64,000 nucleotides of DNA. Origin: Candidatus Parcubacteria bacterium (GTDB lineage: Bacteria; Patescibacteriota; Patescibacteriia; UBA1558; GWA2-36-10). The DNA lies in contig JABJNO010000010.1 of NCBI GenBank assembly GCA_018664825.1, forward strand, positions 8,832-72,831, read 5' to 3'. Shown here piece by piece: positions 19,515-58,316 of the stretch (within the stretch, counting starts at the first letter, position 1; each line of letters begins with the position of its first letter). The position numbers and the translations under genes are program-made. Below the pieces are notes generated by a model. It worked only from the letters and a program-made list of their open reading frames with translations, ran no database searches and was not told where the DNA came from.

Positions 19515-19737
19515 AAGTTTATTTTAGCATTTTTTGGGGTATAAAAAAAGACTTGCCACTTTTTGTGCGGCCAAAAAGTAGCAGAAAAAGCCGCCGAGCA
19601 GAGCCAAGATTCACAGAATTTAGGACTTCGTCATCACTGATGGCACGAAACTCGCCTACAGCTCAAACAATCGCACCATCTCCTTCGGAATGTTCTTCCT
19701 TGTCTCTAAATTTCTAGTTCACCTTGTCTAAGCTCAG

Positions 19738-20289
19738 TTAATTTAAATTATCCCCTATCTCTTTAAAAATAATCTTATCTTCTTCCAGCATTTCATCATA
19801 AGTTTTATATAATGAAATCTCTCCTGTGTTAATATCAATAATAAAATATGATGGTATTTCTTCCATACTACGATACTGAAAATTTTCTAAATTTCCATCT
19901 TTTAAAAAACTACGTAAATATAATAATTCGGAATTATTACCATCACCCAAAATAGTAGAAAAATATTTTTGAGGATTTCCATAATCTAACTTATCATAAA
20001 TATAAATTTTTTGATCTTTTAATAAATACTGGTCTAAATCCAAAATTGAAACGACATTATAATTATGTTTATCATCCCATATTCTATAGTAACCACTTAT
20101 CTTATCTTTATCTATGTTTATAAGACCAAAACAATTTTGAAATGATACATCAGTTCCACTCCTATCTATAAAATTTTCACAATTTGAAATTTTATTTTTA
20201 TAATATAAATTAGACCAAAGGGGGTATAAAAATAGTAATGTTAGAAGTATTATGATAAAAATTAATGATTTATTTTTGTTCTTTAACAT
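19738..20289 (-). CDS. Hypothetical membrane-anchored small protein; candidate immunity protein for the upstream Rhs toxin
   Basis: Sits immediately 3' of the Rhs gene (14-nt gap), same strand. N-terminal TM anchor LIFIIILLTLLFLYPLW. This position is typical of rhs immunity genes. Confidence 0.4.
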   Translation of the reverse strand: MLKNKNKSLIFIIILLTLLFLYPLWSNLYYKNKISNCENFIDRSGTDVSFQNCFGLINIDKDKISGYYRIWDDKHNYNVVSILDLDQYLLKDQKIYIYDKLDYGNPQKYFSTILGDGNNSELLYLRSFLKDGNLENFQYRSMEEIPSYFIIDINTGEISLYKTYDEMLEEDKIIFKEIGDNLN

Positions 20290-20302: not shown

Positions 20303-23300
20303 TTATCTATTAAATTTATGTTCGAATTGTATATCTATATTATAGTTAGAGACTACACCCAAATTCTGCCCTAAAGCTGTATAATTATTGGCTGAATCAG
20401 AAAATAAATTATCATATCCAGAGTCAAAAGAGAAATCATATTTATCTGTAATGTATGTATTAAATGTCCATTCTCCATTTTCTTTATGCCCTCTGATCAA
20501 ATTTGTATACGTACCATGTATTGAAGTTTTTAAATCACCAGAATTAAATTCAAGTCTTTCATCTTTATTAACATTTTTATCACTATACTGTATAATTCTA
20601 TCTTTATTATTACTTTCTGCCTCAGAAACTAAATTTCTTAATTTATCCTTATATTCACCAGATGCTTTTATTTCATCTATAATATAAGAATGCTCATTAT
20701 TTGATCTCACACTAATGTCACTAGGATTCAATGATAAAGAGTGGTCAAGAAAATCCGCAGAAGCTCGCTTACCGGTGGCCTGATAATAACCTACGCCTCC
20801 CACGAAATGAGATTTTATAGTTGCTGTTCCAAGAGGATTTAGCAGCCAAGCTCTTAAAGAGGCGTTTCCTGTTGGATCTACATAAACTACCGGATTATTA
20901 ACTGCGTAGGCATAAGAGTTTAATTCTTGCGGGTTCGCCAAAAGTACACCTGTATCTTTATTATACTCACCTGAGTCTAAAATATCAACCATTAACGGGT
21001 CAATAGATAAGAAATGCCCCGTCTCATTGTCATAGTACCTATTTACAAAATATTGTATACCCGTCTCTTCATCAACTTCTTTTCCGGTAAAGTCATATTC
21101 ATTACTCATATTTGTAACAATGTTTTCGTATGCTTTACTACCATATGGATAATAGTCTATTTGTTCAGCTACTGTGCCCGTATCATCTGTAAGTATAGAG
21201 CTAGAACCCAAATGATCTCCCAATAGATAATATGGATTATCATTGTTGTTTAAAGTAGCTAGTTTTATGTTTCCCAAATATACATGACTTTTAGTATTGT
21301 CTCCCAAATCTTTTTGGAAATATTTATCTACATACTTATCTTCTTTTATTCTACGCCATTCCCAGTGTCCTCCTCCACCCATAGGAGCAGCCATACCTCT
21401 CATCATGATTGGCTCTTCGTGTGGATCTGGTGGGATAAACACATAATCTTCAGTGTATTTGAGCATTCTTTGATTGTTGTGATCATACTTATAATAAGTA
21501 CTATTTTCAGTAGCTATATCATAAGTACTCTTTAGTCTACTGCGGTGATCCCAGGCAAACTTGGTGATGCCACCATTTCTAGTCATATTACCAGCATCAT
21601 CGTACATAAATGTCCTAGTATCATAACCAGACAATTGATGAGGATTGTCATTGTCGTAGTCCATAACGCCAAGATTGCTATTGTAGGTCATATTGCCCAC
21701 AGCATCATACTGATATGTGCGTGTATAATCATCGGTCGGATGAGTGACATAAGAAACTGTACTAGTGCCCAGACGATTTAGATCGTCGTATTGATAATCT
21801 ACTGTCTTGGCCAAGTCAGTATCAGAAGCGTCTACAATCTGCATGATGTTACCGATATTATCATAATCATAGTGCATGTCTTGTAGAGTAGTTGTGCTTT
21901 GTACTGATACCAGATCTGTAAGTCGGAAATTTTCCAATGGATCATAAGTATAATCTGTAATTACGCCATTGGCTCGTTCGTAGTGAGTCATCTGGCCATT
22001 TTGATTGTACTCTATACTGTCTGACAAGATAGCACCTCCTGTGCCTTTATCCAAAAGCACCTCGTCTACTTGCCCCACGCCATTGAATGCGTAGGTGACG
22101 ACCCATCCATTTGGATAAGTAATTTCTTTGAGATTACCACCAAGGTTGTAGTCATACTTCATGACAAAACTTTCGTTTTCTATGGTAGTGGTCGCTGTCC
22201 TTAGTCTACCCAAGGTGTCATAGTCATAGGCCTTGCTATTACCTCCTCCATAATCTGCAAATGACAATTGTCCAACGTCATCGTTTTGATCATAGGTATA
22301 GCTTATTTGATTTGCTCCTGAAAGCTTTTCATACAAAACTCTATTGAGATCATCATAAACATATGATATGGCATCGCCTTTAAAACTAGCTTCTGTCAAA
22401 ACATTACCATTTTTGTCGTGAGTGTAGTTTATCTTTTCTGGAGTAGCGACAGATGACTTATGGACCATGTCCTGCCAGTCTAGATTGTCCAAAACATCAT
22501 AGTGGAAATTACGGATGTTGCCCTGACTGTCTGTGATTTTTTCTAGCTTGTTGGTCAAGGTATAATCATAGCCAGTGGTATAAGTACTAACGCCATTGTA
22601 TTCTTTGACTTCTACTAGATTGCCATATGCATCCTTGGTCAAATCTTTTTGAATACCATTGGCATCGGTGATAGTAGTTTTGAAGCCATCGTATTCGTAG
22701 CTAGTCACTCCTGTTGGAGTAGACTCTGACAATACCCTGTCCAAAGCATCATATGTATATGTCTTGGCTGGCTTGGTCAGATTTGGACTACTGTATGAAA
22801 TACTATTCGTAATATATGGCAAAGACTGATGAACTACTCTACCCTGCGAATCATACAACGTGTCTACTGTAGTATATTGACCAGTTGTAGCTGTGTTGGC
22901 TTTTTTCTGGATTACTCTATCTAGTCCATCATAGTATTCACGGCTAGTACTAAAATTTGATGCGTCAAAATAATCTTTTACCTCTACATAACGAGGTAAA
23001 GTACTATCTTGGTAGCTTATTTCTTGTTTTTTGACCAAGGTGGCTGGAGTGTCAGCGTCTGAAATCCAAACTTCTTTGGTCCTACCAAAAGCGTCAAATC
23101 TATTGACGGTCTTGGCTCCTGTTGGAGATGTAGTTGTTGCTACCTGACTGTTGAATAGATTGTATTCTGTATAGGTTGCTTGGTTGAGATCATTGGTAGT
23201 GGTAGCTGGATATAGATTATGACTATCATAAGCTATGGTTGTAGTAGCTTTTTCAGGGCTAATTTCTTTGTTTACCAGGCCATAACTATTGAACTCTCTA

Positions 23301-26300
23301 TCTATCTCTACACCATCTGTAATGTAGTCTTCTTTGGTAAGATTTACTTTATCTACAGAGCCATGAGCCTGCTTGTTGTAATACAAGTCCTGCTCTTTGC
23401 TGTCTACTGTGTCTGAGATAGTCCTAGTCTTTGGAGCAGACAAAATGTGTTTAGTGGTATTTTGAGCGTATTCATAATCAGTGTCTTTTTCGTCACCTGA
23501 TAAGATGTTGGTTATTTGTCCTGTATCTATATTGGCCACTACTTTACCCAAATTTGCCTCCGTATCTAAATTACCATTTATAAAATTATAATAATTTTCT
23601 TTAGCCACACTAGTTTCATAATATGGTTCTTGGGTATTATGATAATAATTATAAATCGAGGTACCGCTACGAGCTACATTTGATATCCTAAACTCATCCA
23701 TAGAGAACAATCCTGCATCATTGCATGATTCTTTGTGACAAGCCAAAACCAAATGAGTGTTTACAACAGGGTCCAGGGTCAGGGTCACTGGCGCTTGCCC
23801 AGCCAAATCACCATCTATATAAATATAAGCATTATTGGTATCCATCACAAAAGCAAAATGTTGCCATTGTCCTAATTTTATCAAACCAGTATCTGATATA
23901 ACTGTCCAAGTATATTTATCCGCACTAGAAGTAAATACTATATATGAATTATCATTAGAATATTCAACATAAAAGCCATGATCATAGCTATCTTTGTTAC
24001 CCAAGGGTCTACCTGCTATAGCCTTGGCTCCGTTATTTTTTATCCACCCCTCTATACTAAATGCCCCAGCTCCCAAACCACCGATGTTTGTATCCAAACG
24101 CATTGAACCCCCTGTGGATCTATAGGATCCATCAACTTCCTCATTGAAACCAACGTCAATGGCACTTATATTTTCTTCTGTTAAATCATAAGCTGCATTT
24201 CCTTGGGCGTTATCTTTTTTTTCTGCGGTATCCCGAGGACCATCCATGTGGTATAGGGCTATAGTACTAGCATCAGAAGAGTACTCTGCCAAGGGCCCTT
24301 CTTCAAGTAAGTGAATTTGTGTATTTATATTTTCATCAAGATAAGTAAATTTTCTATCACCACTCAAATTGTATGTTAGCCAATTATTATTTTGTTTACT
24401 TAGCAAATTATCACCTGAGTCATATTTACTATTTGATTTTAATCTACCATGTAAATACAAGTTATCATCTTTGGCAATATGATATTCATTTATAGTTTTC
24501 TGCATTTCAGCTCCAACAGAATTTTTGATAGAATAATCAAATTCACCTAGACTATAATAACTTGGATTGGTGGTACCTACGATTGTATCTGCTTCTACAC
24601 TAATACGCCCATCAGCTCCGTTGCCACCATTATTTGAATAACTACCTACTCCACCATCGCCTCCGTAAGCATGAATAAGGTTGGTACCCAAGTCAGCTGT
24701 TTCTATAACTCTTATATTAATACTGCCACCAGAGCCTCCTCCAGCTCCTCCGGTATAATGCCCTGCATTTCCATCCCCATCTCCTCCATCTATACCATTG
24801 GCATTTATTTCTCCATTTACTATCAAACTATTAGCAAAAATCTGAACAATGCCTCCACCGGCACCACCATGAGCTCCATTGGCAGGTAAAGAGTAGCCAG
24901 AGCCTCCTCCGCCAGAACCAGCAAAAATAGGATCCAACTCTTGATTTCCATAAGTCACTCCACCAATGCCATAGGGAGCAGAAACTTGTCCGTCTTGTCC
25001 ATCGGCAACGTGCCCGGCACCGCCACCGCCTCCTGTTCTCTCTAAATTTACATATCCTCCACCGCCTCCTGCACCAGGACCACCTCCCGGTTGACCATAA
25101 AGGCCAGCTGCACCACCTCCAGAATAACCTTTGCCTTCGGCAGTTAAAATACCATCAATCGTAACTTGTCCTTGTACTTTGATTATTACACCCGACTCTA
25201 CTGTGATAGTGTGTCCGGATTGGATGTGCATAGAAGTAAAATTTTTATTAGTAGTCCAAGTTGTAGAAGTTGTAGAAATAAAAACTCCATCTGAACCATC
25301 TCCCATATCTACATCTGGCATAGCTTGTCCTGTTTTATTCTGGGCTTTAGCAAAGCCAAAAACATCTTTTATTTTGTCAGATGGATAACTCTCTGCTTTA
25401 CCGTCTGAATATTGATATTCTTTTCCTATCCACTCATCCATTCCATTATCAACCACCACTTCTTTGACTGTATAAATATTAAAAGGAAGCTCTGGATTTA
25501 GTAGATTTCCATTTTCATCTTTTTCGTTGGCCGAATAATCATAATATACACGTAGCTTGGCGCCCGATTGATAATTTACCTGTTCCAAAATATCCAATTT
25601 TTCTCCCTCACCATAATAAACAGTGTCAGAGGCTGATCCCCAAGAATGCATTACATCTTGCGCTTGATCTCCATTGAAATCTGCAATAGCTACTGGTATT
25701 GAATTATTATAATAACTAATACTGCTTATCCAGCCGGTATCAAATATCGTTTGATCTAATAAATATATAGTCCCTTTAGAATTCCAATCTGTGCCAGAAT
25801 TCCAAGTATCTTTAGAAAAAGATCCTACATCAAAAATTCCATCACCATCAACATCCATGATGTAACTAACATTTAATCCAGAGCTAGTATTTACTACATA
25901 ATGACTTGGTCTATTAGGAGCAGTAAAAACACTAGAATTATATAATAAACTACCTGTATTCAAATAAACTGCTTCGCCCTCATCTATTATTGGTACGCCG
26001 CCTGCCTCATAAGAATAAATACAATAATAATTATAATATACATCTAATAAACCATCATTGTTTACATCGGAAAATCCAAATGGATCACCTCCATATTTTA
26101 AACAATCACTAGAAGCCATGTCCACAGAGACATTATAATCTAAGCCTATATCCCAATTCCCTGTAATGATATTTCGCATATAAACATCCACTTCTGAATC
26201 ATGATTGGCTGGATGATGATTATAAACAATGTCATCATAACCATCTTTGTTCATATCTTGAAACATTACAGTGTTCATAAGTGCTCCACTGTTACCAGCA

Positions 26301-27910
26301 CTCTGAAATAAAGATACTGGTAAAGTATGAACAATCGGAGAATCCCAACCACTCCCATTATTATAATAAATATTTGTATCTGTCACCATATCTATCAAAT
26401 GATCTCCATTTAATTCGGCAAATGATACTGGCACCGAATATCTTATGCCAATACCAGCACAAGTAAAGCCACTGCCAAAACTTTCTGAAAATGCAGCAGA
26501 ACTCGTCCAACCACCGTCTCCGTCATTGAGATAAACATCTGTACTTAAATTTGTATTGGAACAATTTATACGTATATAATCTGTAAAACTGTCAGAATTC
26601 AAATCAATAAACATATCACGCTTATTGGTGGTAACACTCAATCCCTCGCCAAGATAATAGCTATTTGGCAAAGTATAGCCAGTGCCCTCTGCATAAGTAG
26701 TCGGCTGATAACTATATTCAAAATCTACTTGATCTTTTACAGAAAAATTACTACCTTCATAATATTTTGGTACTATAGAATCAAGTAAGTATTTATTCTG
26801 ATTAGTATTTAAAGATAAGTCTAAATCATAAGAAGTAAACAAGCTACCATCAATTTTGATATCTATTTTATCTACTAAATATTTTGTTTGAACTGCAAAA
26901 CCAGTTTCATAAGAAAGATTCAACAAATTATTTTCTACTGGAGTACCATGAGCAAAGGGCTCAAAATTTACTGTAAAAATCCCATCTGTGGTGCCGTATC
27001 CAGTATAAGTAATTTTCTTTGGATAAATTTCCCCTGAATCTTTATAGTATTCATACTTCACATAATTATCATTGGTATCTCTCACTTCTTCGAGCATCCA
27101 TTTATAAACTTGACTGGTATTACCAGGATTATCTTGTCTAGCCAGAGCAGAGCTTCCATAGCTATAAACCGTGCCCATTTTATCAGTAACAATCCACTTA
27201 TTAGCACTATTAAATTCAATCTTAGAAAAATCATTTTCCACTAATTTTCCATATGTACCATAACCATTTCCATCTACACTAATAGGCTCCAATCTACTGC
27301 CATTTAGTAAAAAATAATTTTGACTATACATATTATCAACACCCGTCCTATTTTCTCTACTAACACTAGGCATTGATACTTCCCAACCAAAACCAAGCAT
27401 AGAACCAATGTTTGTCTGCCGATGATTATACTGCAGAGCAACGCTTGGTTGTAGACCGTTTCTACCTTGGGGAATTTGAATAGGATAACCATAACTAAAT
27501 GCACCTGTAAATTCATCTACATTGTATTGACCTGTTTGGTCTTTTGGTTTTAAGCCAGAGTTGTCCCGTCCAGCGTACATATCCAAAGGAACTTCATCTC
27601 CGGAAGTCAACAGTGCCATTGGATCTTCAATCGGCGCTTCAATTGTTGGATCCTCTACTATTGGATCTACTACAATCGGATCATCTATTATTGGTTCTTT
27701 AATAATCTCCGGCACTTGCTTTATTTCCTCCGGAATAGGCAAGGCAAGTTCCTGAACTCCCTCCACAGCCTGCATTTGTTCTACAAGTGCTTCTACTTGC
27801 ACTTCCCTGGCTTGAACAGACAGAGTCGGTGCTAGCGAAGTAAATACCAAACTACAAATCAAAAATCTGATTGTGATTTGATAAAATCTTGATTTTTTAG
27901 TTACTTTCAT
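20303..27910 (-). CDS. Giant secreted Rhs/YD-repeat polymorphic toxin (SpvB-like N-domain, FG-GAP/VCBS repeats, Gly-rich region, LamG-like domain, YD repeats, Rhs core, variable C-terminal domain)
   Basis: Signal peptide MKVTKKSRFYQITIRFLICSLVFTSLAPTLSVQA. SpvB-like segment IQIPQGRNGLQPSVALQYNHRQTNIGSMLGFGWEV. FG-GAP-like VNNDGLLD / DVDGDGIFD / DFNGDQAQD. Many YD repeats (YTYDALDRVLSE, YEYDGF, YDYTLTNKLEKITDSQGN). Rhs core YLLGDHLGSSSILTDDTG...YYPYGS...FTGKEVDEETGIQYFVNRYYDNETGHFLSIDPL...NPVVYVDPTGN, followed by a C-terminal extension of about 220 aa. Confidence 0.85.
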   Translation of the reverse strand: MKVTKKSRFYQITIRFLICSLVFTSLAPTLSVQAREVQVEALVEQMQAVEGVQELALPIPEEIKQVPEIIKEPIIDDPIVVDPIVEDPTIEAPIEDPMALLTSGDEVPLDMYAGRDNSGLKPKDQTGQYNVDEFTGAFSYGYPIQIPQGRNGLQPSVALQYNHRQTNIGSMLGFGWEVSMPSVSRENRTGVDNMYSQNYFLLNGSRLEPISVDGNGYGTYGKLVENDFSKIEFNSANKWIVTDKMGTVYSYGSSALARQDNPGNTSQVYKWMLEEVRDTNDNYVKYEYYKDSGEIYPKKITYTGYGTTDGIFTVNFEPFAHGTPVENNLLNLSYETGFAVQTKYLVDKIDIKIDGSLFTSYDLDLSLNTNQNKYLLDSIVPKYYEGSNFSVKDQVDFEYSYQPTTYAEGTGYTLPNSYYLGEGLSVTTNKRDMFIDLNSDSFTDYIRINCSNTNLSTDVYLNDGDGGWTSSAAFSESFGSGFTCAGIGIRYSVPVSFAELNGDHLIDMVTDTNIYYNNGSGWDSPIVHTLPVSLFQSAGNSGALMNTVMFQDMNKDGYDDIVYNHHPANHDSEVDVYMRNIITGNWDIGLDYNVSVDMASSDCLKYGGDPFGFSDVNNDGLLDVYYNYYCIYSYEAGGVPIIDEGEAVYLNTGSLLYNSSVFTAPNRPSHYVVNTSSGLNVSYIMDVDGDGIFDVGSFSKDTWNSGTDWNSKGTIYLLDQTIFDTGWISSISYYNNSIPVAIADFNGDQAQDVMHSWGSASDTVYYGEGEKLDILEQVNYQSGAKLRVYYDYSANEKDENGNLLNPELPFNIYTVKEVVVDNGMDEWIGKEYQYSDGKAESYPSDKIKDVFGFAKAQNKTGQAMPDVDMGDGSDGVFISTTSTTWTTNKNFTSMHIQSGHTITVESGVIIKVQGQVTIDGILTAEGKGYSGGGAAGLYGQPGGGPGAGGGGGYVNLERTGGGGGAGHVADGQDGQVSAPYGIGGVTYGNQELDPIFAGSGGGGSGYSLPANGAHGGAGGGIVQIFANSLIVNGEINANGIDGGDGDGNAGHYTGGAGGGSGGSINIRVIETADLGTNLIHAYGGDGGVGSYSNNGGNGADGRISVEADTIVGTTNPSYYSLGEFDYSIKNSVGAEMQKTINEYHIAKDDNLYLHGRLKSNSKYDSGDNLLSKQNNNWLTYNLSGDRKFTYLDENINTQIHLLEEGPLAEYSSDASTIALYHMDGPRDTAEKKDNAQGNAAYDLTEENISAIDVGFNEEVDGSYRSTGGSMRLDTNIGGLGAGAFSIEGWIKNNGAKAIAGRPLGNKDSYDHGFYVEYSNDNSYIVFTSSADKYTWTVISDTGLIKLGQWQHFAFVMDTNNAYIYIDGDLAGQAPVTLTLDPVVNTHLVLACHKESCNDAGLFSMDEFRISNVARSGTSIYNYYHNTQEPYYETSVAKENYYNFINGNLDTEANLGKVVANIDTGQITNILSGDEKDTDYEYAQNTTKHILSAPKTRTISDTVDSKEQDLYYNKQAHGSVDKVNLTKEDYITDGVEIDREFNSYGLVNKEISPEKATTTIAYDSHNLYPATTTNDLNQATYTEYNLFNSQVATTTSPTGAKTVNRFDAFGRTKEVWISDADTPATLVKKQEISYQDSTLPRYVEVKDYFDASNFSTSREYYDGLDRVIQKKANTATTGQYTTVDTLYDSQGRVVHQSLPYITNSISYSSPNLTKPAKTYTYDALDRVLSESTPTGVTSYEYDGFKTTITDANGIQKDLTKDAYGNLVEVKEYNGVSTYTTGYDYTLTNKLEKITDSQGNIRNFHYDVLDNLDWQDMVHKSSVATPEKINYTHDKNGNVLTEASFKGDAISYVYDDLNRVLYEKLSGANQISYTYDQNDDVGQLSFADYGGGNSKAYDYDTLGRLRTATTTIENESFVMKYDYNLGGNLKEITYPNGWVVTYAFNGVGQVDEVLLDKGTGGAILSDSIEYNQNGQMTHYERANGVITDYTYDPLENFRLTDLVSVQSTTTLQDMHYDYDNIGNIMQIVDASDTDLAKTVDYQYDDLNRLGTSTVSYVTHPTDDYTRTYQYDAVGNMTYNSNLGVMDYDNDNPHQLSGYDTRTFMYDDAGNMTRNGGITKFAWDHRSRLKSTYDIATENSTYYKYDHNNQRMLKYTEDYVFIPPDPHEEPIMMRGMAAPMGGGGHWEWRRIKEDKYVDKYFQKDLGDNTKSHVYLGNIKLATLNNNDNPYYLLGDHLGSSSILTDDTGTVAEQIDYYPYGSKAYENIVTNMSNEYDFTGKEVDEETGIQYFVNRYYDNETGHFLSIDPLMVDILDSGEYNKDTGVLLANPQELNSYAYAVNNPVVYVDPTGNASLRAWLLNPLGTATIKSHFVGGVGYYQATGKRASADFLDHSLSLNPSDISVRSNNEHSYIIDEIKASGEYKDKLRNLVSEAESNNKDRIIQYSDKNVNKDERLEFNSGDLKTSIHGTYTNLIRGHKENGEWTFNTYITDKYDFSFDSGYDNLFSDSANNYTALGQNLGVVSNYNIDIQFEHKFNR

Positions 27911-27950
27911 ATTGGTGTTGTTAATATTTTAAAATAAATTTCTACTATTA

Positions 27951-28523
27951 TTAATTGTTTAGAAGTAATTCAACATTTTTCTTTGAAAATGATATCAATG
28001 ATAACACAACTTCATCTATGGTATCTGTTGAAAATCTTTTTTTACCCGTAATTTCTGTATCAACCAACTTTTCGTTATCAATATAATAATACCCATCAAA
28101 ACCAAGTTCTACTCTTGTATAATCAAGTGTCCCTGTATTATTAGGATCTGGAAAATATTCTTCCGTTTCGTGTATCATTATTAATTTTTTGTCTAAAAAA
28201 TAATATTCATAAGTAACTACACCATAAGAAAAGCCTAGTTTCTCTACAATCTTATGAATCCCCTCATTTTTAAAATGACCAGTCAATTGCCCACCTCCAT
28301 CAGTCATATGATCCAAAAACTCTTCATTATTCAATATTTTTATTTCATAATTTTCTTCTTGATCCATCAAATCAACCTTATCTTGAATACCTTTAGCTAT
28401 GGTCTCTTGTGAATTATTTTCTACCACATACTCCGTGTTATTATTTCTAAAAATAACAAAAAATATTGAAGCTAAAATTAATATAGCTGCGAGCAATATG
28501 ATTTTTTTGAATTTATTTTTCAT
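27951..28523 (-). CDS. Hypothetical membrane-anchored small protein; candidate immunity protein for the Rhs-core/M15 toxin
   Basis: Starts 3 nt after the stop of the 380-aa toxin, same strand. N-terminal TM anchor IILLAAILILASIFFVIF with an extracytoplasmic remainder. Confidence 0.4.
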   Translation of the reverse strand: MKNKFKKIILLAAILILASIFFVIFRNNNTEYVVENNSQETIAKGIQDKVDLMDQEENYEIKILNNEEFLDHMTDGGGQLTGHFKNEGIHKIVEKLGFSYGVVTYEYYFLDKKLIMIHETEEYFPDPNNTGTLDYTRVELGFDGYYYIDNEKLVDTEITGKKRFSTDTIDEVVLSLISFSKKNVELLLNN

Positions 28524-28525
28524 AA

Positions 28526-29668
28526 TTATTGATTATGTGAATTATATAAATCTTGCCAACTCTCACCAAATGTCATCTGAAAATGTGGATAGTCCATATA
28601 TGGTGCAGTCCAGTTCCCTCCCCACTCAAATCCTTGATCAATCGCTATATTGGCAATATCCTGACTAATTGGTTCCCACTTTGGCTGACCACCTTCCATC
28701 ACCACTACATCTATAGCTCTTCCATAGTTATGATAACTTTGCCCTCCCTTGGCATTTGTAACCCATGGTCCCGTAGGTGGGCTCGTCCTGCTTTGCCAAT
28801 ATAACTCATTTTGATATTCAATAGAACGATAACCCTGCGTCACTCTTAACTGTATATCAAACTGAGCCTCTGTATCATTAATAAAATTGATTGCCGGTTG
28901 TTGTACGCGTGTATCAAGCTGTTTTATTCTTTCGTTTGATACAGCGTCCCAAGTGGCATCATTTTGTATAGAATTATTGCCCGTTTGGCCACCAGAATGA
29001 TTTGGTGTTGATACTACTGTCTGCGCTTGATTGGTAATATTTGGTTTATTAAAAATCCTTGAAGTAAAAAATGAAATAGAATCAACAAATGAATTCCAAA
29101 TTGAACTGATACTAAAATTACCAGTTGGATCTATAAATCTTACAGGATTATTCCTGGCATAGCTATAGCTATTTAGCTGCTGGGGGTCTGTCAAAAAACT
29201 ATTCGGTGAAGATATGAGCAACGGGTCAATACTGACAAATCTAGCTGTATCACTGTCATAATATCTAGCACCAAAATATTGGAGGCTCGTTTCGCTATCT
29301 AGCTCCTTGCCACCAAATTTATAATAATTCGAAATAGCCGAACTTTGATTAATTATACCGCCAAAATCCTCATAATCATTTATCTCTACCACTTGCCCGG
29401 TTTCATTTGTAATGATAGCAGTAGAATCCAAATGATCATTTAGATTAAAATAAATTTCTTGCTCGTTTTCTATAGTAGAAATTTTTTGATCACCCAGATA
29501 AATGTGTAATTTTGTATTTCCTGATTCGTTTACTTCAAAATACTGATCTACATATTTATCTTTATGGATTACTTGTTCCACGTGTAGCCCGGCAGCGATT
29601 ACAACGCCGGGCAACACAAATGTAAAGGAACTGAGCAAAGTTATGCTCCCAAAAATGCTTTTCTTCAT
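28526..29668 (-). CDS. Secreted Rhs-core protein with a C-terminal peptidase M15 (VanY/CwlK-like peptidoglycan hydrolase) toxin domain
   Basis: Signal peptide. Rhs core homologous to the giant protein (IHKDKYVDQYFEVN...YLGDQKIS...YYKFGGKELDSETSLQYFGARYYDSDTARFVSIDPL...NPVRFIDPTGN). C-terminus has SYHNYGRAIDV and EWGGNW...DYPHFQ, which are the M15 zinc-peptidase motifs. Confidence 0.7.
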   Translation of the reverse strand: MKKSIFGSITLLSSFTFVLPGVVIAAGLHVEQVIHKDKYVDQYFEVNESGNTKLHIYLGDQKISTIENEQEIYFNLNDHLDSTAIITNETGQVVEINDYEDFGGIINQSSAISNYYKFGGKELDSETSLQYFGARYYDSDTARFVSIDPLLISSPNSFLTDPQQLNSYSYARNNPVRFIDPTGNFSISSIWNSFVDSISFFTSRIFNKPNITNQAQTVVSTPNHSGGQTGNNSIQNDATWDAVSNERIKQLDTRVQQPAINFINDTEAQFDIQLRVTQGYRSIEYQNELYWQSRTSPPTGPWVTNAKGGQSYHNYGRAIDVVVMEGGQPKWEPISQDIANIAIDQGFEWGGNWTAPYMDYPHFQMTFGESWQDLYNSHNQ

Positions 29669-29812
29669 ACATTTTTAACCTTACTTTAACTAATAAAAAA
29701 CCCAACATAATGCTGGGGTTATAAAATCATAACGAACACAAAAATCATCGGGAATACTTTATGTTCAATATAAATTTGTATTAATGAATTATCCATATAT
29801 TTAATTATGATT

Positions 29813-30232
29813 TTATTTGATACTATAATGCTCTAAAATACTATTAACTAATTTTTCTTTTTGCTCCCACTTGAGTCCTTGTTCAACAACTTTTTCTTCT
29901 ATTTGCAAATGAACTATTTCATGCAATATCGTTTTTACTATCTCATCGGTCTCTCTCTGTATGTTTATATATATTTTATTTGGTAATTTATAACTACCAA
30001 ACGCACCAAACTTAGATAAATATACTTGATATTTTTGATTATCCAGAATTTCTTCATACTTTTTTATCTCACCTTCTAAATCACTAACCAGTTTTTTATA
30101 ATCTAGCTTTTTATACTTATCCAAAACTGACAAATTATAATAAATCTTATTTTTATCTAAAAAATTTTTACACCTTATTGTATTAACAATTGAGACAAAA
30201 TCATTAAATTTATTATATTTACAGACTATCAT
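29813..30232 (-). CDS. Hypothetical small protein with an HExxH motif
   Basis: ILHEIVHLQ is a possible zinc-metallopeptidase-like motif. No other recognisable features. Confidence 0.3.
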   Translation of the reverse strand: MIVCKYNKFNDFVSIVNTIRCKNFLDKNKIYYNLSVLDKYKKLDYKKLVSDLEGEIKKYEEILDNQKYQVYLSKFGAFGSYKLPNKIYINIQRETDEIVKTILHEIVHLQIEEKVVEQGLKWEQKEKLVNSILEHYSIK

Positions 30233-41648: not shown

Positions 41649-41724
41649 GCCCGGATACTGGATTCGAACCAATGACCTCTTCCGTTTTTAGGGGAAGCGC
41701 TCTATCCTGCTGAGCTAATCCGGG
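41649..41724 (-). tRNA. tRNA with an atypical 9-nt anticodon loop (isotype undetermined), genomically encoded CCA
   Basis: Minus-strand tRNA: acceptor CCCGGAT/ATCCGGG, D-arm GCTC-AGCAGGATA-GAGC, T-arm ATTGG-TTCGAAT-CCAGT, discriminator C then CCA. The anticodon stem CTTCC/GGAAG encloses CCUAAAAAC (9 nt instead of 7). Confidence 0.55.
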
Positions 41725-41848
41725 AATTTGATGTAGTGAGCTTGAAAAGAAGCGGAACCAGAACTTCTTGGCTTTTTTTGTTGCCCCTGCAAATCAAGTT
41801 TTGGGAGCGCCTCCCAAGACCGACCTACAAGTCAAGCCCACCGTTTTG

Positions 41849-41947
41849 TGGAGCCCACTGACGGATTCGAACCGCCGACCGCTTGATTAGTCTTTAGGTT
41901 TGTACCTGACCAGACCTCAAGTGCTCTACCAACTGAGCTAAGTGGGC
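41849..41947 (-). tRNA. tRNA-like gene with a 23-nt insertion in the anticodon arm, CCA encoded
   Basis: GCCCACT-TA-GCTCAGTTGGTAGAGC-A-CTTGA[GGTCTGGTCAGGTACAAACCTAAAGACTAA]TCAAG-CGGTC-GGCGGTTCGAATCCGTC-AGTGGGC-T-CCA. The D and T arms are canonical, but the anticodon region is 30 nt. Confidence 0.5.
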
Positions 41948-42304
41948 TATAGAATCTTTCTCGTCTATAAAAAGAGGCCGGATGAAAAGGATATATAATC
42001 CTCGATGTTCATTGTTGTGCAGCCACCTAAGCACCAGAACACCCCTAGACGGGATAAGGTTCATCCGGCGATGATAGGGCTGGGTGTCGGAGACATATTG
42101 TCTCAATGTTCATTGTTTACCGCCCTCGCCTTTGGCAGTAAGTGAACATTTTTACAACACCCAGCTGTACGATTTCGGTGCAAAACGAAGAGGTGCTGGG
42201 GAATCAAATTTGATCAATCCCCGGAAACTTCAGGACTACTTTTGAGAAAAGCCTATTTATCTGGACAAAAATAGTTAGAAGGATCTTTACAGCACCTCGA
42301 TTCT

Positions 42305-42379
42305 ATAAAATTGGCACCCCCAGCAGGATTCGAACCCGCGACGCCTGGTTTTGGAGACCAGCGCTCTAACCGGACTGAG
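42305..42379 (-). tRNA. tRNA-Trp (anticodon CCA)
   Basis: GCCCCCA-TA-GCTC-AGTCCGGTTA-GAGC-G-CTGGT-CTCCAAA-ACCAG-GCGTC-GCGGG-TTCGAAT-CCTGC-TGGGGGT-G(CCA). Anticodon loop CU-CCA-AA. Confidence 0.85.
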
Positions 42380-42522
42380 CTATGGGGGCGCCTATTCACA
42401 TGAAAACGAACTATTAAAGCATAGTCTATAATACCACAGGCTAATCTTTTGTCAATAGCCATAAAACCCCTATAAACAAAGGATTTGTCTAAAATATAGC
42501 TAAAATAAGAGGCTTTTACCCC

Positions 42523-55615: not shown

Positions 55616-56321
55616 TATATACTTTGGTTCCTAAATTATTATCACTTACTATTTTCAAAATATTTGCTGGAGTATATTTGAACACTCGCAACTTCAATTT
55701 GTTTTCTCTAGCTAGAGCAAAAGCCGTAGCATCCATCACTTTGAGATCTTTATCCAAACTTTCGGTATAAGATATTTTTTTATAAAGCTTGGCTTTGGGA
55801 TTTTTATCAGGATCAGAATCATAAACTCCATTTACATTGGTAGCCTTGAATACTTCGTCAGCCTTGATTTCCAAAGCTCGTAAAACCATTGTAGTGTCAG
55901 TTGTAAAATATGGATTACTAGTACCACCTGCAAAAACAACAACAGTACCTTTTTGTAAATGCTCGATAGCTTTTTGATGATTGTATGGTCTGACAACCTT
56001 TGGCATATAAAAAGGAGACAGTACAACTGCCTTTTGTCCGATACTTTCCAATATTCCTTGCAAGGCCAATGAATTGATGTGAGTGGCCATCATGCCTATG
56101 TGATCAGCTGTCACTCTTTCCATTTCTGCTCCTTTGACCATCCGTCCCCGAAAAATATTACCTGCCCCAGATACAACAGCTACCTGATGACCAGATTTTA
56201 CCAATTTTTTCAAACTTTGAGCCAATTTTTTTATCTCTCCAAAATCGAGATTAGAAACAGATTCCGCATCTCCCATGGCAGATCCTGAAACTTTAATTAA
56301 AATCCTTTTATTTTTGGGCAT
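55602..56321 (-). CDS. pyrH: UMP kinase
   Basis: ILIKVSGSAMGD and VVSGAGNIFRG. Start assigned to the internal Met MPKNKR (ATG at 56321). The annotated ORF extends to 56384. Confidence 0.8.
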   Translation of the reverse strand: MPKNKRILIKVSGSAMGDAESVSNLDFGEIKKLAQSLKKLVKSGHQVAVVSGAGNIFRGRMVKGAEMERVTADHIGMMATHINSLALQGILESIGQKAVVLSPFYMPKVVRPYNHQKAIEHLQKGTVVVFAGGTSNPYFTTDTTMVLRALEIKADEVFKATNVNGVYDSDPDKNPKAKLYKKISYTESLDKDLKVMDATAFALARENKLKLRVFKYTPANILKIVSDNNLGTKVYNESS

Positions 56322-56456
56322 ATTTTTATTTTTTAATCTATATCCATTATGCCAAATTGAGCTAATAATGGCAATAGTTGACAATATGCCTAAAATTCAA
56401 TAGTATAGAATGTTACTTTAGATCATTACATTTTAAAAACAACTAGGAGGTAATCA

Positions 56457-57539
56457 ATGAACCCCGAAGACAATGAAGTCCCCGTGGATGAGAGGTGTAT
56501 CCATGACATCTATCCACCCTGGTGTGGGATGTGCAAAAAGCTCAAAGAATCAAGAACAAAACGAACTCCGCAGCACCGAGATCCTGGAAGCAAAAAAAAG
56601 GGACTAGTAATTCCTAGCACCAACGTGGTAGATAGGAGTTATGCTTTGGTCCAAACCGCCGGTGGTGAAAAGAAAAACAAGTTTTTACAAATCACCACAG
56701 GAACTCACCGAGTGCACATCAATGGCTTTCCCAACTTTTGGGCCATCAAGAGAATACTAGAAAGAGGTCCTAATATCCAAAGAATCACTATGATTCCTTC
56801 TTTTTTGAGAAAGTTGGGCGAGAAACACAAAAAGCTGTGTACTGACCGAGGTGTTGTTGTCTGTTCTGGCTACCATCGACCTGAGGTAGCTTGGCGTGAA
56901 AATGAATCTCGCTCGGTCCACTACAATGCTCAGCGTAAATTTATGACTGCGCTGGAAGGTGACCAAAAAACCTTGTTTGATGAGTTGATTAGGTTCGGAT
57001 TTACCAGTGCTGAGATGGCAGCTCGATACTTTTGTCTCAACGACGAAGATTTCCTGACTCAGGAAAAAGTCGGCTGGGAATTTGGTTTTGTTGCTTGCAA
57101 TAACACCGCTCCCGTTTCGTCATACATAAACGCTGTCCTCTGCTATCTGGACAACGAGCTCGAAACAGGCCAAGCATCAAAGAGAATTGCTGGCTCCATG
57201 GCAACAAGAGTCAAGCGTCTGCGTGCTTTGATTAGTCAAGAAAAAGTCTTACAGGCTCTCCTTGAAAAACTAGGCATTGAACAATTGCCCGAAGGCATGC
57301 CTCCGGCTATGCTTGATAATTTGGAAGCTATCCTAGCGACCGAAAAAGATGGCCGATTCGCCAGACTCAAGGTTTCTTCTCCTCGTCTCCACAAAATCAT
57401 TGCCCTGCGGTATGGTCGCACTGACAACAAGTGGCATGTCTTACAAGAAATAGGCACTCGCCACAAAGTCACTCGCGAACGTATTCGCCAACTCGAAGGC
57501 CAAGCCTTTGAAGAATTGGGTATTGAACAAGTTCATTGA
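56457..57539 (+). CDS. Hypothetical DNA-binding protein with a C-terminal sigma-70 region-4-like HTH and an N-terminal Cys cluster
   Basis: C-terminal LHKIIALRYGRTDNKWHVLQEIGTRHKVTRERIRQLEGQAFEEL resembles sigma-70 region 4.2. N-terminal CIHDIYPPWCGMC. GC-rich. RBS AGGAGG. Confidence 0.45.
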   Translation: MNPEDNEVPVDERCIHDIYPPWCGMCKKLKESRTKRTPQHRDPGSKKKGLVIPSTNVVDRSYALVQTAGGEKKNKFLQITTGTHRVHINGFPNFWAIKRILERGPNIQRITMIPSFLRKLGEKHKKLCTDRGVVVCSGYHRPEVAWRENESRSVHYNAQRKFMTALEGDQKTLFDELIRFGFTSAEMAARYFCLNDEDFLTQEKVGWEFGFVACNNTAPVSSYINAVLCYLDNELETGQASKRIAGSMATRVKRLRALISQEKVLQALLEKLGIEQLPEGMPPAMLDNLEAILATEKDGRFARLKVSSPRLHKIIALRYGRTDNKWHVLQEIGTRHKVTRERIRQLEGQAFEELGIEQVH

Positions 57540-57548
57540 ACACTAGCA

Positions 57549-57580
57549 CCGGCCGAGCAAAGCTCGGCCGGTTTTTTTTA
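57549..57580 (+). terminator. Rho-independent terminator
   Basis: CCGGCCGAGCAAAGCTCGGCCGG followed by TTTTTTTTA. Confidence 0.8.
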
Positions 57581-57653
57581 TTTGACTAAAAGTATCAGGT
57601 ATTATAAGTTTAGCATCTAGTTCTTTACATATTTGTGACAGCATTTTGAGTTT

Positions 57654-58316
57654 ATGAGCTATAAATCCAGAATACTGTCACAAAAGAGTTGGTATGGTAC
57701 CATCCACCACAACATCGTGGTTCAATTGGCAGTAGGAGGTAATGATGTGAAACGCTTTATAAAAACTACTTTTCAGTGGGATACTATGAAGCTGGAAACT
57801 GATCTACGTGATCAAGAAAGCTCTGATGTAGCCGGAAAAAATATTTGTTATCTGCTCGATGAATTATCTATCGTGTCCGTCCCGCACTCTGCTGGTACAA
57901 GACGAGGCACGGTCTGTCTCAAAATCAAGATGCAAAATGGCGATGGCCCCCAAAAAGACGGAGTTGAAAACCTTAGGCGTCGCCTAATCTCTTTGAGTGA
58001 TTCTCAAAAGAGAAGTATTTCTTTTACCCGTGGATTCCCTGATATGAGCGACAACCCTGCTTTCCGTGTCACTTTTGACCTCAAAAAAGGAGAACAATTC
58101 ACTGATGCCGCTATTGAAGTGGCCAGCTTTATTTTCCACAAGCTAGGAATCAAAGACAGAGAAGCTCTCAAACACCACCTAGGACTTTTTATCACCCGAC
58201 AAGAAACGCTGCTTTTGGTAGCTGGAGATTGGATTCCCTTTGAGCAACATGTCCGCCATCAATATGGTCTACACAATCCAGAACACACCAGTCAAATCGA
58301 ACTCCAACTCGCATAA
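57654..58316 (+). CDS. Hypothetical protein (GC-rich island gene)
   Basis: 220-aa ORF, GC-rich, no recognisable motif. Followed by a terminator. Confidence 0.4.
   Translation: MSYKSRILSQKSWYGTIHHNIVVQLAVGGNDVKRFIKTTFQWDTMKLETDLRDQESSDVAGKNICYLLDELSIVSVPHSAGTRRGTVCLKIKMQNGDGPQKDGVENLRRRLISLSDSQKRSISFTRGFPDMSDNPAFRVTFDLKKGEQFTDAAIEVASFIFHKLGIKDREALKHHLGLFITRQETLLLVAGDWIPFEQHVRHQYGLHNPEHTSQIELQLA

Follow-up and report, generated by a model that had tools for sequence, protein, structure and literature searches.

In the current picture of Rhs toxins, the Rhs cage encloses an unfolded toxin and an aspartyl-protease plug acts inside that cage. Immunity proteins that reside in the periplasm are also known. 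Here we analyze two adjacent genes on the minus strand of a 64,000-nucleotide (nt) stretch of DNA from a Candidatus Parcubacteria bacterium (contig JABJNO010000010.1; the whole stretch is called the window below), which encode proteins of 380 and 190 amino acids (aa). The former joins a signal peptide and the last part of an Rhs shell to a peptidase M15 domain, and the latter is predicted to be anchored in the membrane. We consider it likely, at a probability of roughly 0.7, that the two form an effector-immunity module of the polymorphic-toxin type, whose carrier consists of a signal peptide and an Rhs core and lacks the YD-repeat cage.

The closest described systems share parts of this layout. 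Like Sec-exported Rhs/WapA proteins (e.g. Bacillus subtilis WapA) and the giant SpvB-FG-GAP-Rhs proteins of Patescibacteria, the pair combines a signal peptide, a core ending in DPxG, a variable toxin and a downstream candidate immunity gene. In contrast to full-length Rhs/WapA, however, the window protein has no YD-repeat cage and only about 150 aa of shell sequence; because the cage is absent, its toxin cannot be encapsulated. The pair also resembles the orphan rhs-CT/immunity cassettes of Enterobacteria (Salmonella, E. coli and Serratia), in which a truncated core, a tip and an immunity gene are found beside a full-length rhs. Unlike those cassettes, the window gene comes with a start codon, a ribosome-binding site and a signal peptide of its own, is located upstream, and belongs to a separate lineage.

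The tip has the fold, the SxHxxGxAxD and DxxH motifs, the H-D-H zinc ligands and the catalytic Asp of Ply500 (2vo9), LysB4 (6akv), ChiX (5opz) and Bacillus CwlK, but differs from them in being an exchangeable toxin tip with a dedicated partner and in lacking a cell-wall-binding domain. A wall enzyme combined with an immunity protein exported to the wall compartment is also seen among wall effectors of the type VI secretion system (Tae/Tai, Tse1/Tsi1, and M15-like tips on WHIX effectors, PMC12135965). By contrast, the window toxin would leave the cell by Sec export without a contractile machine, and its candidate immunity protein belongs to a different, unannotated family. As for the core, its only counterpart among solved structures is the final stretch of ~110-125 residues in shells of the Rhs, TcC and teneurin kinds (Tse5, RhsA, YenC2 and teneurin-like shells), and it keeps both Asp-Pro motifs of their aspartyl-protease plug (Tse5 D1141/D1164; YenC2). 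It differs from that plug in having no surrounding shell and in the spacing of the two Asp residues. In Tse5, the C-terminal plug holds an aspartyl-protease motif, DPXGX18-19DPXG, and either D1141A or D1164A abolishes toxin release (PMC10684867).

Rhs polymorphic toxins and M15-like antibacterial tips have thus been described before (PMC12135965), and a giant Rhs is mentioned in passing in a Saccharibacteria genome (PMC6031116). In the library searched, which is incomplete, we found nothing on effectors composed of a signal peptide and a core only, nothing on the 190-aa immunity family, and nothing on Rhs toxins in this radiation except that passing remark.

The 380-aa protein and its relatives

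The two genes and the parts of the encoded proteins are as follows (coordinates are those of the window).

28526..29668, minus strand: candidate cage-less Rhs-core effector gene, 380 aa (MBT4849549.1, annotated 'hypothetical protein')
29588..29668, minus strand: signal peptide, about aa 1-27 (MKK, hydrophobic stretch, ..VIAAG; predicted cleavage site)
29120..29569, minus strand: Rhs C-terminal core segment, aa 34-183, ending in DPTG and equivalent to the last ~150 residues of the Rhs shell
29120..29374, minus strand: TIGR03696 match, aa 99-183, within the core segment
29225..29227 and 29129..29131, minus strand: putative aspartyl-protease residues D148 and D180, which go with R135 (motif definition from PMC10684867)
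28949..29119, minus strand: start of the variable toxin tip, aa 184-240, with a predicted helix at aa 187-206 (low confidence) and an S/T/N/Q-rich linker
28529..28948, minus strand: peptidase M15 domain, aa 241-380, most like L-Ala-D-Glu endopeptidases (by Pfam, fold and residues)
28730..28732, 28709..28711 and 28583..28585, minus strand: zinc ligands H313, D320 and H362 (by alignment to solved M15 structures)
28592..28594, minus strand: catalytic Asp, D359 (by the same alignment)
27951..28523, minus strand: candidate immunity gene, 190 aa (MBT4849548.1, annotated 'hypothetical protein')

The initial annotation of this locus had proposed an Rhs-core protein with its own signal peptide and a C-terminal M15 domain, followed after a 3-nt gap by an anchored immunity protein. 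Both open reading frames (ORFs) are present at the coordinates listed, on the minus strand; the gap is in fact 2 nt (TAA-tt-ATG). The 380-aa gene starts with its own ATG, preceded by a Shine-Dalgarno-like AAGG. Its product begins with MKK and a 23-residue hydrophobic stretch ending in ..VIAAG. Such a signal peptide is conserved in the homologues, which carry canonical AXA cleavage sites (for instance between ..PVFA and RD, or ..LSLA and LG), in agreement with the proposed export signal.

The initial annotation had also claimed homology between the Rhs core and that of the giant Rhs protein (2535 aa) encoded next to it, and this was borne out. In a BLASTP comparison, aa 34-189 of the short protein match aa 2188-2354 of the giant at 47% identity (E = 7e-43), and the alignment takes in the stretches that had been quoted, IHKDKYVDQYFEV against IKEDKYVDKYFQK and RFIDPTGN against YVDPTGN. 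The TIGR03696 model (Rhs_assc_core) scores 74.5 bits on the 380-aa protein against a cut-off of 32.5. Using Pfam and NCBIfam models, we found neither a YD-repeat match (PF05593 or TIGR01643) nor an N-terminal plug. With shell-like sequence limited to aa 34-183, the protein does not amount to a full-length Rhs cage; what it does contain is an Rhs-associated core in which D148-P and D180-P-T-G are invariant among homologues. An alignment of these homologues reveals that similarity drops sharply right after the DPxG motif (G183), where the tip starts.

The tip ends in the claimed M15 domain. Two Pfam models exceed their cut-offs of 25 bits, Peptidase_M15_4 (PF13539) with 50.8 bits over aa 305-365 and VanY (PF02557) with 39.5 bits over aa 250-327. 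H313, D320, D359 and H362 are invariant in 19 homologues within the motifs SYHNYGRAID and DYPHF, which align with SNHNYGVAVD and DYPHF of 2vo9, so that loss of the zinc ligands, named earlier as a reason to abandon the assignment, can be dismissed: the His/Asp/His ligands and the catalytic Asp are all in place. The nearest solved sequences, both L-Ala-D-Glu peptidases, are phage A500 Ply500 (2vo9, 1.6e-19) and phage B4 LysB4 (6akv, 8.8e-18). An AlphaFold model has a predicted local distance difference test (pLDDT) score above 90 over aa 240-380 and shows a LAS-type fold. A Foldseek search with this model returned 2vo9 at the top (E = 5.6e-11, root-mean-square deviation (rmsd) 1.8 A, TM 0.74), then 6akv and Serratia ChiX (5opz). 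By contrast, the carboxypeptidases VanY and LdcB fit the model far worse, with an rmsd of 6-8 A. By analogy to its nearest solved relatives, the tip would cut the L-Ala-D-iGlu bond of the stem peptide.

The same tip is not confined to short carriers. From the cleavage motif onward, the predicted helix, the linker and the 'TWD...' M15 domain can be aligned among short carriers, an orphan tip (P0009) and the giant Rhs proteins of two further loci, L009 and L010, in which the module ends proteins of 2447 and 2684 aa. Because short, orphan and giant Rhs forms have this module in common, the same warhead is mounted on caged and cage-less carriers.

We searched 5.8 billion proteins for homologues. 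Among the hits are many proteins 350-420 aa long, assigned to Parcubacteria, Peregrinibacteria, Paceibacteria and the 'Patescibacteria group', which share the N-terminal half and end in M15 or CHAP; some homologues are named CwlK or LdcB by JGI. When the N-terminal 190 aa were used as a query, mostly Rhs fragments of 250-330 aa from other phyla were retrieved and the closest known relatives were left out, but shorter signal-peptide-bearing core classes also came out. All retrieved sequences were then sorted by a core hidden Markov model (HMM) and a hydrophobicity test into three classes. Class A (n=35) has a signal peptide and the full 150-aa core, with 23 CHAP tips (one of them sub-threshold), 4 M15 tips and 8 tips of unknown type; 27 of these 35 proteins therefore carry a wall hydrolase. 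The 380-aa protein of the window, also of the M15 type, is not counted among the 35. The core is shortened at its N-terminus in class B (n=24) and reduced to the ~75-aa Rhs_assc_core in class C (n=14). The architecture of signal peptide plus core is thus shared by at least 35 proteins of Patescibacteria; it is conserved and not an accident. Equivalents of D124, R135, D148-P149, D180 and G183 are 97-100% conserved in the 73 signal-peptide-bearing proteins with truncated cores, a figure that is partly circular, as these sequences were retrieved by similarity to the core itself.

The two shorter classes have features of their own. Class B proteins (P0138-P0165) come from other phyla, in G+C-richer bacteria; they begin near 'VVEYYHLDA..' and carry tips such as predicted restriction-endonuclease-fold (REase) toxins. 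Class C proteins occur outside Patescibacteria (P0141, P0161, P0164, P0172, P0177, P0180, P0182, P0192, P0195 and P0204); they read ..AHA and then FTEQRKFIGEEYD.. at the start of the core, and their tips are mostly lipases or alpha/beta-hydrolases.

Joint exchange of the tip and the downstream gene

A close relative (L090, GCA_003358065.1) possesses the same locus, in which the upstream 139-aa gene is 75% identical and the start of the giant Rhs 82% identical to those of the window. A BLASTN comparison revealed 84.1% DNA identity from position 30000 down to 29121, in the G183 codon of DPTG, no similarity at all over 29120..27926, and 82.5% identity again from 27925 onward, 15 nt before the ATG of the giant gene. 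As similarity is lost at DPTG and regained after the 190-aa gene, the tip and the downstream gene must have been exchanged as one unit at DPxG. The exchanged segment is the following.

27926..29120, minus strand: exchangeable cassette of 1,195 bp (toxin tip aa 184-380, the 190-aa gene and a short spacer; BLASTN against L090)

The corresponding gap in L090 is filled by a CHAP tip and a gene for a 222-aa membrane-anchored protein, which is unrelated to the 190-aa protein and is 44% identical to the ORF behind another CHAP short form (in L087). In a further relative, L091, the short form is of the M15 type (68% identity), and the gene behind it encodes a 191-aa homologue of the 190-aa protein (54% identity; family HMM E 3.7e-57). 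Such joint exchange at DPxG is the defining behavior of polymorphic toxin-immunity cassettes, and in the window pair the variable part both starts after DPxG and is swapped together with the gene behind it.

The 190-aa protein begins with MKNKFKK and an 18-residue hydrophobic stretch, which places an anchor at about aa 8-26 (28446..28502). Because a Lys-rich N-terminus precedes a single hydrophobic helix, an N-in, C-out topology is predicted. In the structural model (mean pLDDT 85), the anchor and a second helix are followed by 6-7 strands that form an antiparallel sheet, and the chain ends in a helix. The anchor and extracytoplasmic body proposed in the initial annotation thus agree with both the sequence and the model, each a prediction. 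The protein belongs to no Pfam or NCBIfam family, with weak MORN_2 traces in relatives only. Its best Foldseek match against the PDB has an E of 0.04, a profile search of PDB sequences returned nothing, and no informative name is attached to the family. The family is nevertheless sizeable, with 806 representative clusters at E <=1e-3 and 470 at E <=1e-10, and 124 of the 136 members examined have a hydrophobic N-terminus. The family is accordingly predicted to reside in the compartment where the toxin would act.

Linkage between this family and M15 was examined in about 1.3 Mb of DNA from 80 M15-containing loci. Every significant family match in these loci lies directly downstream of the M15 ORF (L027, L011, L042, L020, L017 and L010), and the linked loci span Bacteroidota, Gammaproteobacteria and Paceibacterota. 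Besides these six, a partner gene lies immediately downstream and co-oriented in L091 and L004-L006. The carriers vary. A family member follows the 2684-aa Rhs-M15 of a Paceibacterota genome (L010), while P0009, an orphan M15 tip of 251 aa that lacks a signal peptide and whose start lies within the core, is followed by P0125, 58% identical to the 190-aa protein. The family thus tracks the type of toxin and not the carrier: it is found with M15 tips on short, orphan and giant carriers, whereas an unrelated family stands behind CHAP tips on near-identical carriers (L090 and L087). Like orphan immunity genes, members of the family are also found on their own, in arrays of small ORFs that follow Rhs genes without M15. 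The suggestion that the 190-aa ORF is the cognate partner is therefore well founded, given its replacement together with the tip in L090 and its homologues behind M15 tips in other genomes. As a cognate partner, the 190-aa protein would bind and block the M15 tip.

The partners at L007, L008, L012 and L001 had at first looked like further family members, with E values between 1e-2 and 4e-4 in a test set of 14 sequences. They were not counted, because these matches to the first profile were lost in the larger search.

Two loci deserve separate mention. In L004 (7691..9993), the small ORFs around the orphan M15 tip and its partner include one for an immunity protein of the WapI family. In L009 (8633..9871), the giant Rhs-M15 is followed by a second orphan tip, 245 aa long and with its start within the core, and by a 160-aa ORF. 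Both are typical toxin-immunity arrays in Patescibacteria.

The giant Rhs neighbor, proposed mode of action and rival explanations

The 380-aa and 190-aa genes are the first two of four co-oriented genes on the minus strand, followed by those of the giant Rhs and of a 183-aa protein. The remaining features of this block are listed here.

20303..27910, minus strand: full-length neighboring Rhs gene, 2535 aa (MBT4849547.1, annotated 'hypothetical protein')
19738..20289, minus strand: gene for a membrane-anchored 183-aa protein, 3' of the giant rhs (MBT4849546.1, annotated 'hypothetical protein')
29701..29717, minus strand: terminator-like hairpin and T-run, closing the upstream 139-aa gene at the 5' edge of the four-gene block (terminator scan)
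19554..19583, minus strand: terminator-like hairpin at the 3' end of the four-gene block (terminator scan)

Between 29701 and 19583 the scan showed no strong terminator-like site, defined as a stem of at least 7 pairs with 4 G-C followed by a run of six or more T, and the minus-strand matches to the consensus that it did list inside the block are all weaker. The four genes resemble a single transcription unit. On the 5' side, the 380-aa gene is separated by 144 nt of intergenic sequence, containing the terminator-like hairpin, from the unrelated 139-aa gene. We also considered whether the 380-aa gene is a frameshifted fragment of a longer rhs, the other reason that had been given for abandoning the assignment. 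This candidate was ruled out by the intergenic spacer, the hairpin, the unrelated gene upstream and the homologous genes elsewhere, which are complete (360-420 aa) and have canonical signal peptides.

The giant Rhs comprises a signal peptide, SpvB, FG-GAP, a Gly-rich region, LamG, YD repeats, a core (aa 2253-2348) and a tip of ~180 aa, and is probably a separate effector in the same block. The order of a short gene, a small anchored ORF and a giant SpvB/FG-GAP/Rhs gene recurs in L087, L088, L090 and L091. The position of the short gene upstream of the full-length rhs, pointed out in the initial annotation as unusual, is thus real and, as it recurs in four assemblies, ancestral in this lineage. 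Across genomes, short-form cores are 46-82% identical to each other and only 40-52% identical to the giant core of their own genome, while giant cores are 54-65% identical among themselves. In the window, the DNA of the two cores is 59% identical with a longest exact run of 12 nt, and for this reason cannot serve homologous recombination. P0004, a homologue with 55% identity, lies in an otherwise syntenic region in which no giant Rhs gene was called within 10 kb on either side. Together with the conserved signal peptide, this is consistent with the earlier suggestion that the short protein is independently secreted.

The giant protein has two further features of interest. A Pro/Gly-rich insertion, ..IPPDPHEEPIMMRGMAAPMGGGGHWEWRR, is encoded at 21349..21450 (about aa 2155-2188), just before the point where the short form would start (IKEDKYVDKYF), and an insertion is found at the equivalent place in the giant Rhs of L087 and L088. 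From this position, the short form matches a unit that is set off by a loop in the full-length protein. As for the ~180-aa tip (last 185 aa, 20303..20860), no Pfam family and no solved relative were found. The 183-aa protein is likely the immunity protein for this tip and is unrelated to the 190-aa family; its membrane anchor hints that the giant's tip, too, acts on the envelope.

We propose the following mode of action. The 380-aa precursor would be exported by Sec and its signal peptide removed. Parcubacteria are generally described as having no outer membrane, and export would then put the protein directly outside the cell. There, the ~150-aa core with R135, D148-P and D180-P-x-G probably cuts after DPTG(N) and frees a tip of ~22 kDa, which is the weakest step of this scheme. 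Like Ply500, LysB4 and ChiX, the freed M15 domain would hydrolyze the L-Ala-D-iGlu bond in the stem peptides of peptidoglycan, and would do so in a neighboring cell that may be either a competitor or the host under an episymbiont. The co-transcribed 190-aa protein, anchored N-in and C-out, would bind and block the enzyme at the producer's own surface, and the tip and the immunity gene would pass between strains as one cassette bounded by DPxG. The dominance of wall hydrolases in the cage-less family would follow from the wall being reachable from outside without passage through a membrane.

Several observations weigh against this reading. In solved Rhs proteins the core segment is a plug inside the shell (PMC10684867), and in the window D148-P and D180-P-T-G are 32 residues apart, compared with about 22 in the classical DPXGX18DPXG. 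The core segment has a pLDDT below 50 in the AlphaFold model of the 380-aa protein, which was built on an alignment of only 19 sequences, so that structural support for a core that folds or cleaves without a cage is lacking; the circularity of the conservation figure also bears on this point. With regard to the partner, a member of the 190-aa family stands alone in L089 with no M15 gene nearby, and the protein downstream of Rhs-M15 in L007, L008, L009 and L012 matches the family weakly or not at all. The organism is uncultured.

Of the other explanations, the one that we take most seriously, though we rate it well below an effector-immunity module, shares the same molecular mechanism and differs in the purpose served: the secreted M15 enzyme would be a factor for host attachment or feeding that opens the host wall locally, with the 190-aa protein guarding the symbiont's own wall. 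The DNA comes from a metagenome-assembled genome of Parcubacteria, members of this radiation are described as obligate epibionts (PMC12102498, PMC13622651), wall hydrolases prevail in the cage-less family (27/35), and the locus is held at the same place in several relatives. On the other hand, the rapid joint swap of tip and partner between close relatives is a signature of kin antagonism, and orphan partner copies in small-ORF arrays behind other Rhs genes are what defense against the toxins of neighbors would leave. The swap also makes it improbable that the protein is a housekeeping, CwlK-like autolysin whose Rhs piece is a relic or a pro-peptide and whose 190-aa companion is a regulator. 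It is true that M15 L-Ala-D-Glu peptidases such as CwlK are ordinary wall enzymes, as the JGI names of some homologues would have it here, and that many of the 80 M15 loci encode plain ~220-aa proteins in Bacillota. An essential enzyme, however, would not give way to CHAP and a different partner where the flanks are 82-84% identical; nor does a housekeeping role fit the strict conservation of the core protease residues or the presence of the same tip module at the ends of 2447-aa and 2684-aa Rhs proteins.

The two remaining explanations concern the giant neighbor. The short protein might depend on it, being loaded into, docked on or co-delivered by the 2535-aa Rhs in the manner of ABC-toxin C subunits. 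The recurrent short/small/giant gene order in L087, L088, L090 and L091 and the appearance of a single transcription unit would suit this arrangement, and in Yersinia ABC toxins the products of distinct loci share a shell (PMC11067744). We nonetheless give it little credence: the giant has its own complete core and its own tip and so offers no vacant place, no giant Rhs gene was called within 10 kb of P0004 in either direction, and an exposed wall is accessible to a hydrolase without any carrier. Least probable of all is a displaced orphan rhs cassette, that is, a silent spare tip kept for recombination into the neighboring full-length rhs. The core is indeed held in common with the adjacent giant, and classic truncated-core orphans of the same tip exist, P0009 for example. 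Yet we rejected this candidate because the gene has its own ATG, Shine-Dalgarno-like AAGG and signal peptide (all conserved in at least 35 homologues), lies upstream and not downstream of the giant rhs, and shares with it a core of 59% DNA identity and exact runs of 12 nt at most, the short and giant cores being separate lineages.

An effector-immunity module thus being preferred, the architecture suggests that an Rhs core can work without the large protein cage. A conserved plug without a cage points either to a function of the plug itself, as a self-cleaving pro-domain after Sec export, or to a use of the core that has not been described. We can go further only tentatively, at somewhat less than even odds: the core may be an autonomous, self-cleaving module for export and maturation that needs no cage; cage-less effectors led by a signal peptide may be a widespread, so far unrecognized class (73 proteins in three grades of truncation, the shortest with a core of ~75 aa), within which Patescibacteria would be specialized in CHAP and M15 tips with their own anchored immunity families, tip and immunity gene being swapped as cassettes at DPxG; and the 190-aa family may be a new immunity family for M15 toxins. 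The module would add a concrete, exchangeable set of candidate secreted wall hydrolases in Patescibacteria, for which the means of breaching or competing at the surfaces of other cells are poorly understood. It would also define a sizeable, unannotated family of 190-aa proteins as probable inhibitors of M15 L-Ala-D-Glu endopeptidases.

Other features of the window

The upstream neighbor of the short Rhs gene, the 139-aa protein encoded at 29813..30232 on the minus strand, contains an HExxH motif (HEIVH) and gives weak traces of SprT-like and DUF6782 metallopeptidases (E about 0.05). Its gene stays beside the short Rhs gene in both L090 (75% identity) and L091 (61% identity). In a relative, whose genome encodes P0004, PGK comes immediately after the gene for the 139-aa homologue.

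A block of plus-strand genes at 12600..18500 has a G+C content of 0.42-0.52, compared with about 0.33 elsewhere, and encodes TrpRS, a pyridoxal phosphate (PLP)-dependent decarboxylase, a PfkB-like kinase, a glycosyl transferase family 3 protein and BtpA. Because PGK directly follows the 139-aa homologue in the P0004 genome, this block and the Rhs island both fall in a variable region, and the block may stem from horizontal transfer. The G+C content is also raised (0.40-0.48) at 56000..58000 and 60000..62000, where no Rfam match accounts for either rise. Finally, three tRNA genes are located at 41649..42389 on the minus strand. At 96 nt, the one at 41852..41947 exceeds the usual length of a tRNA, which points to a long variable arm or an insertion.

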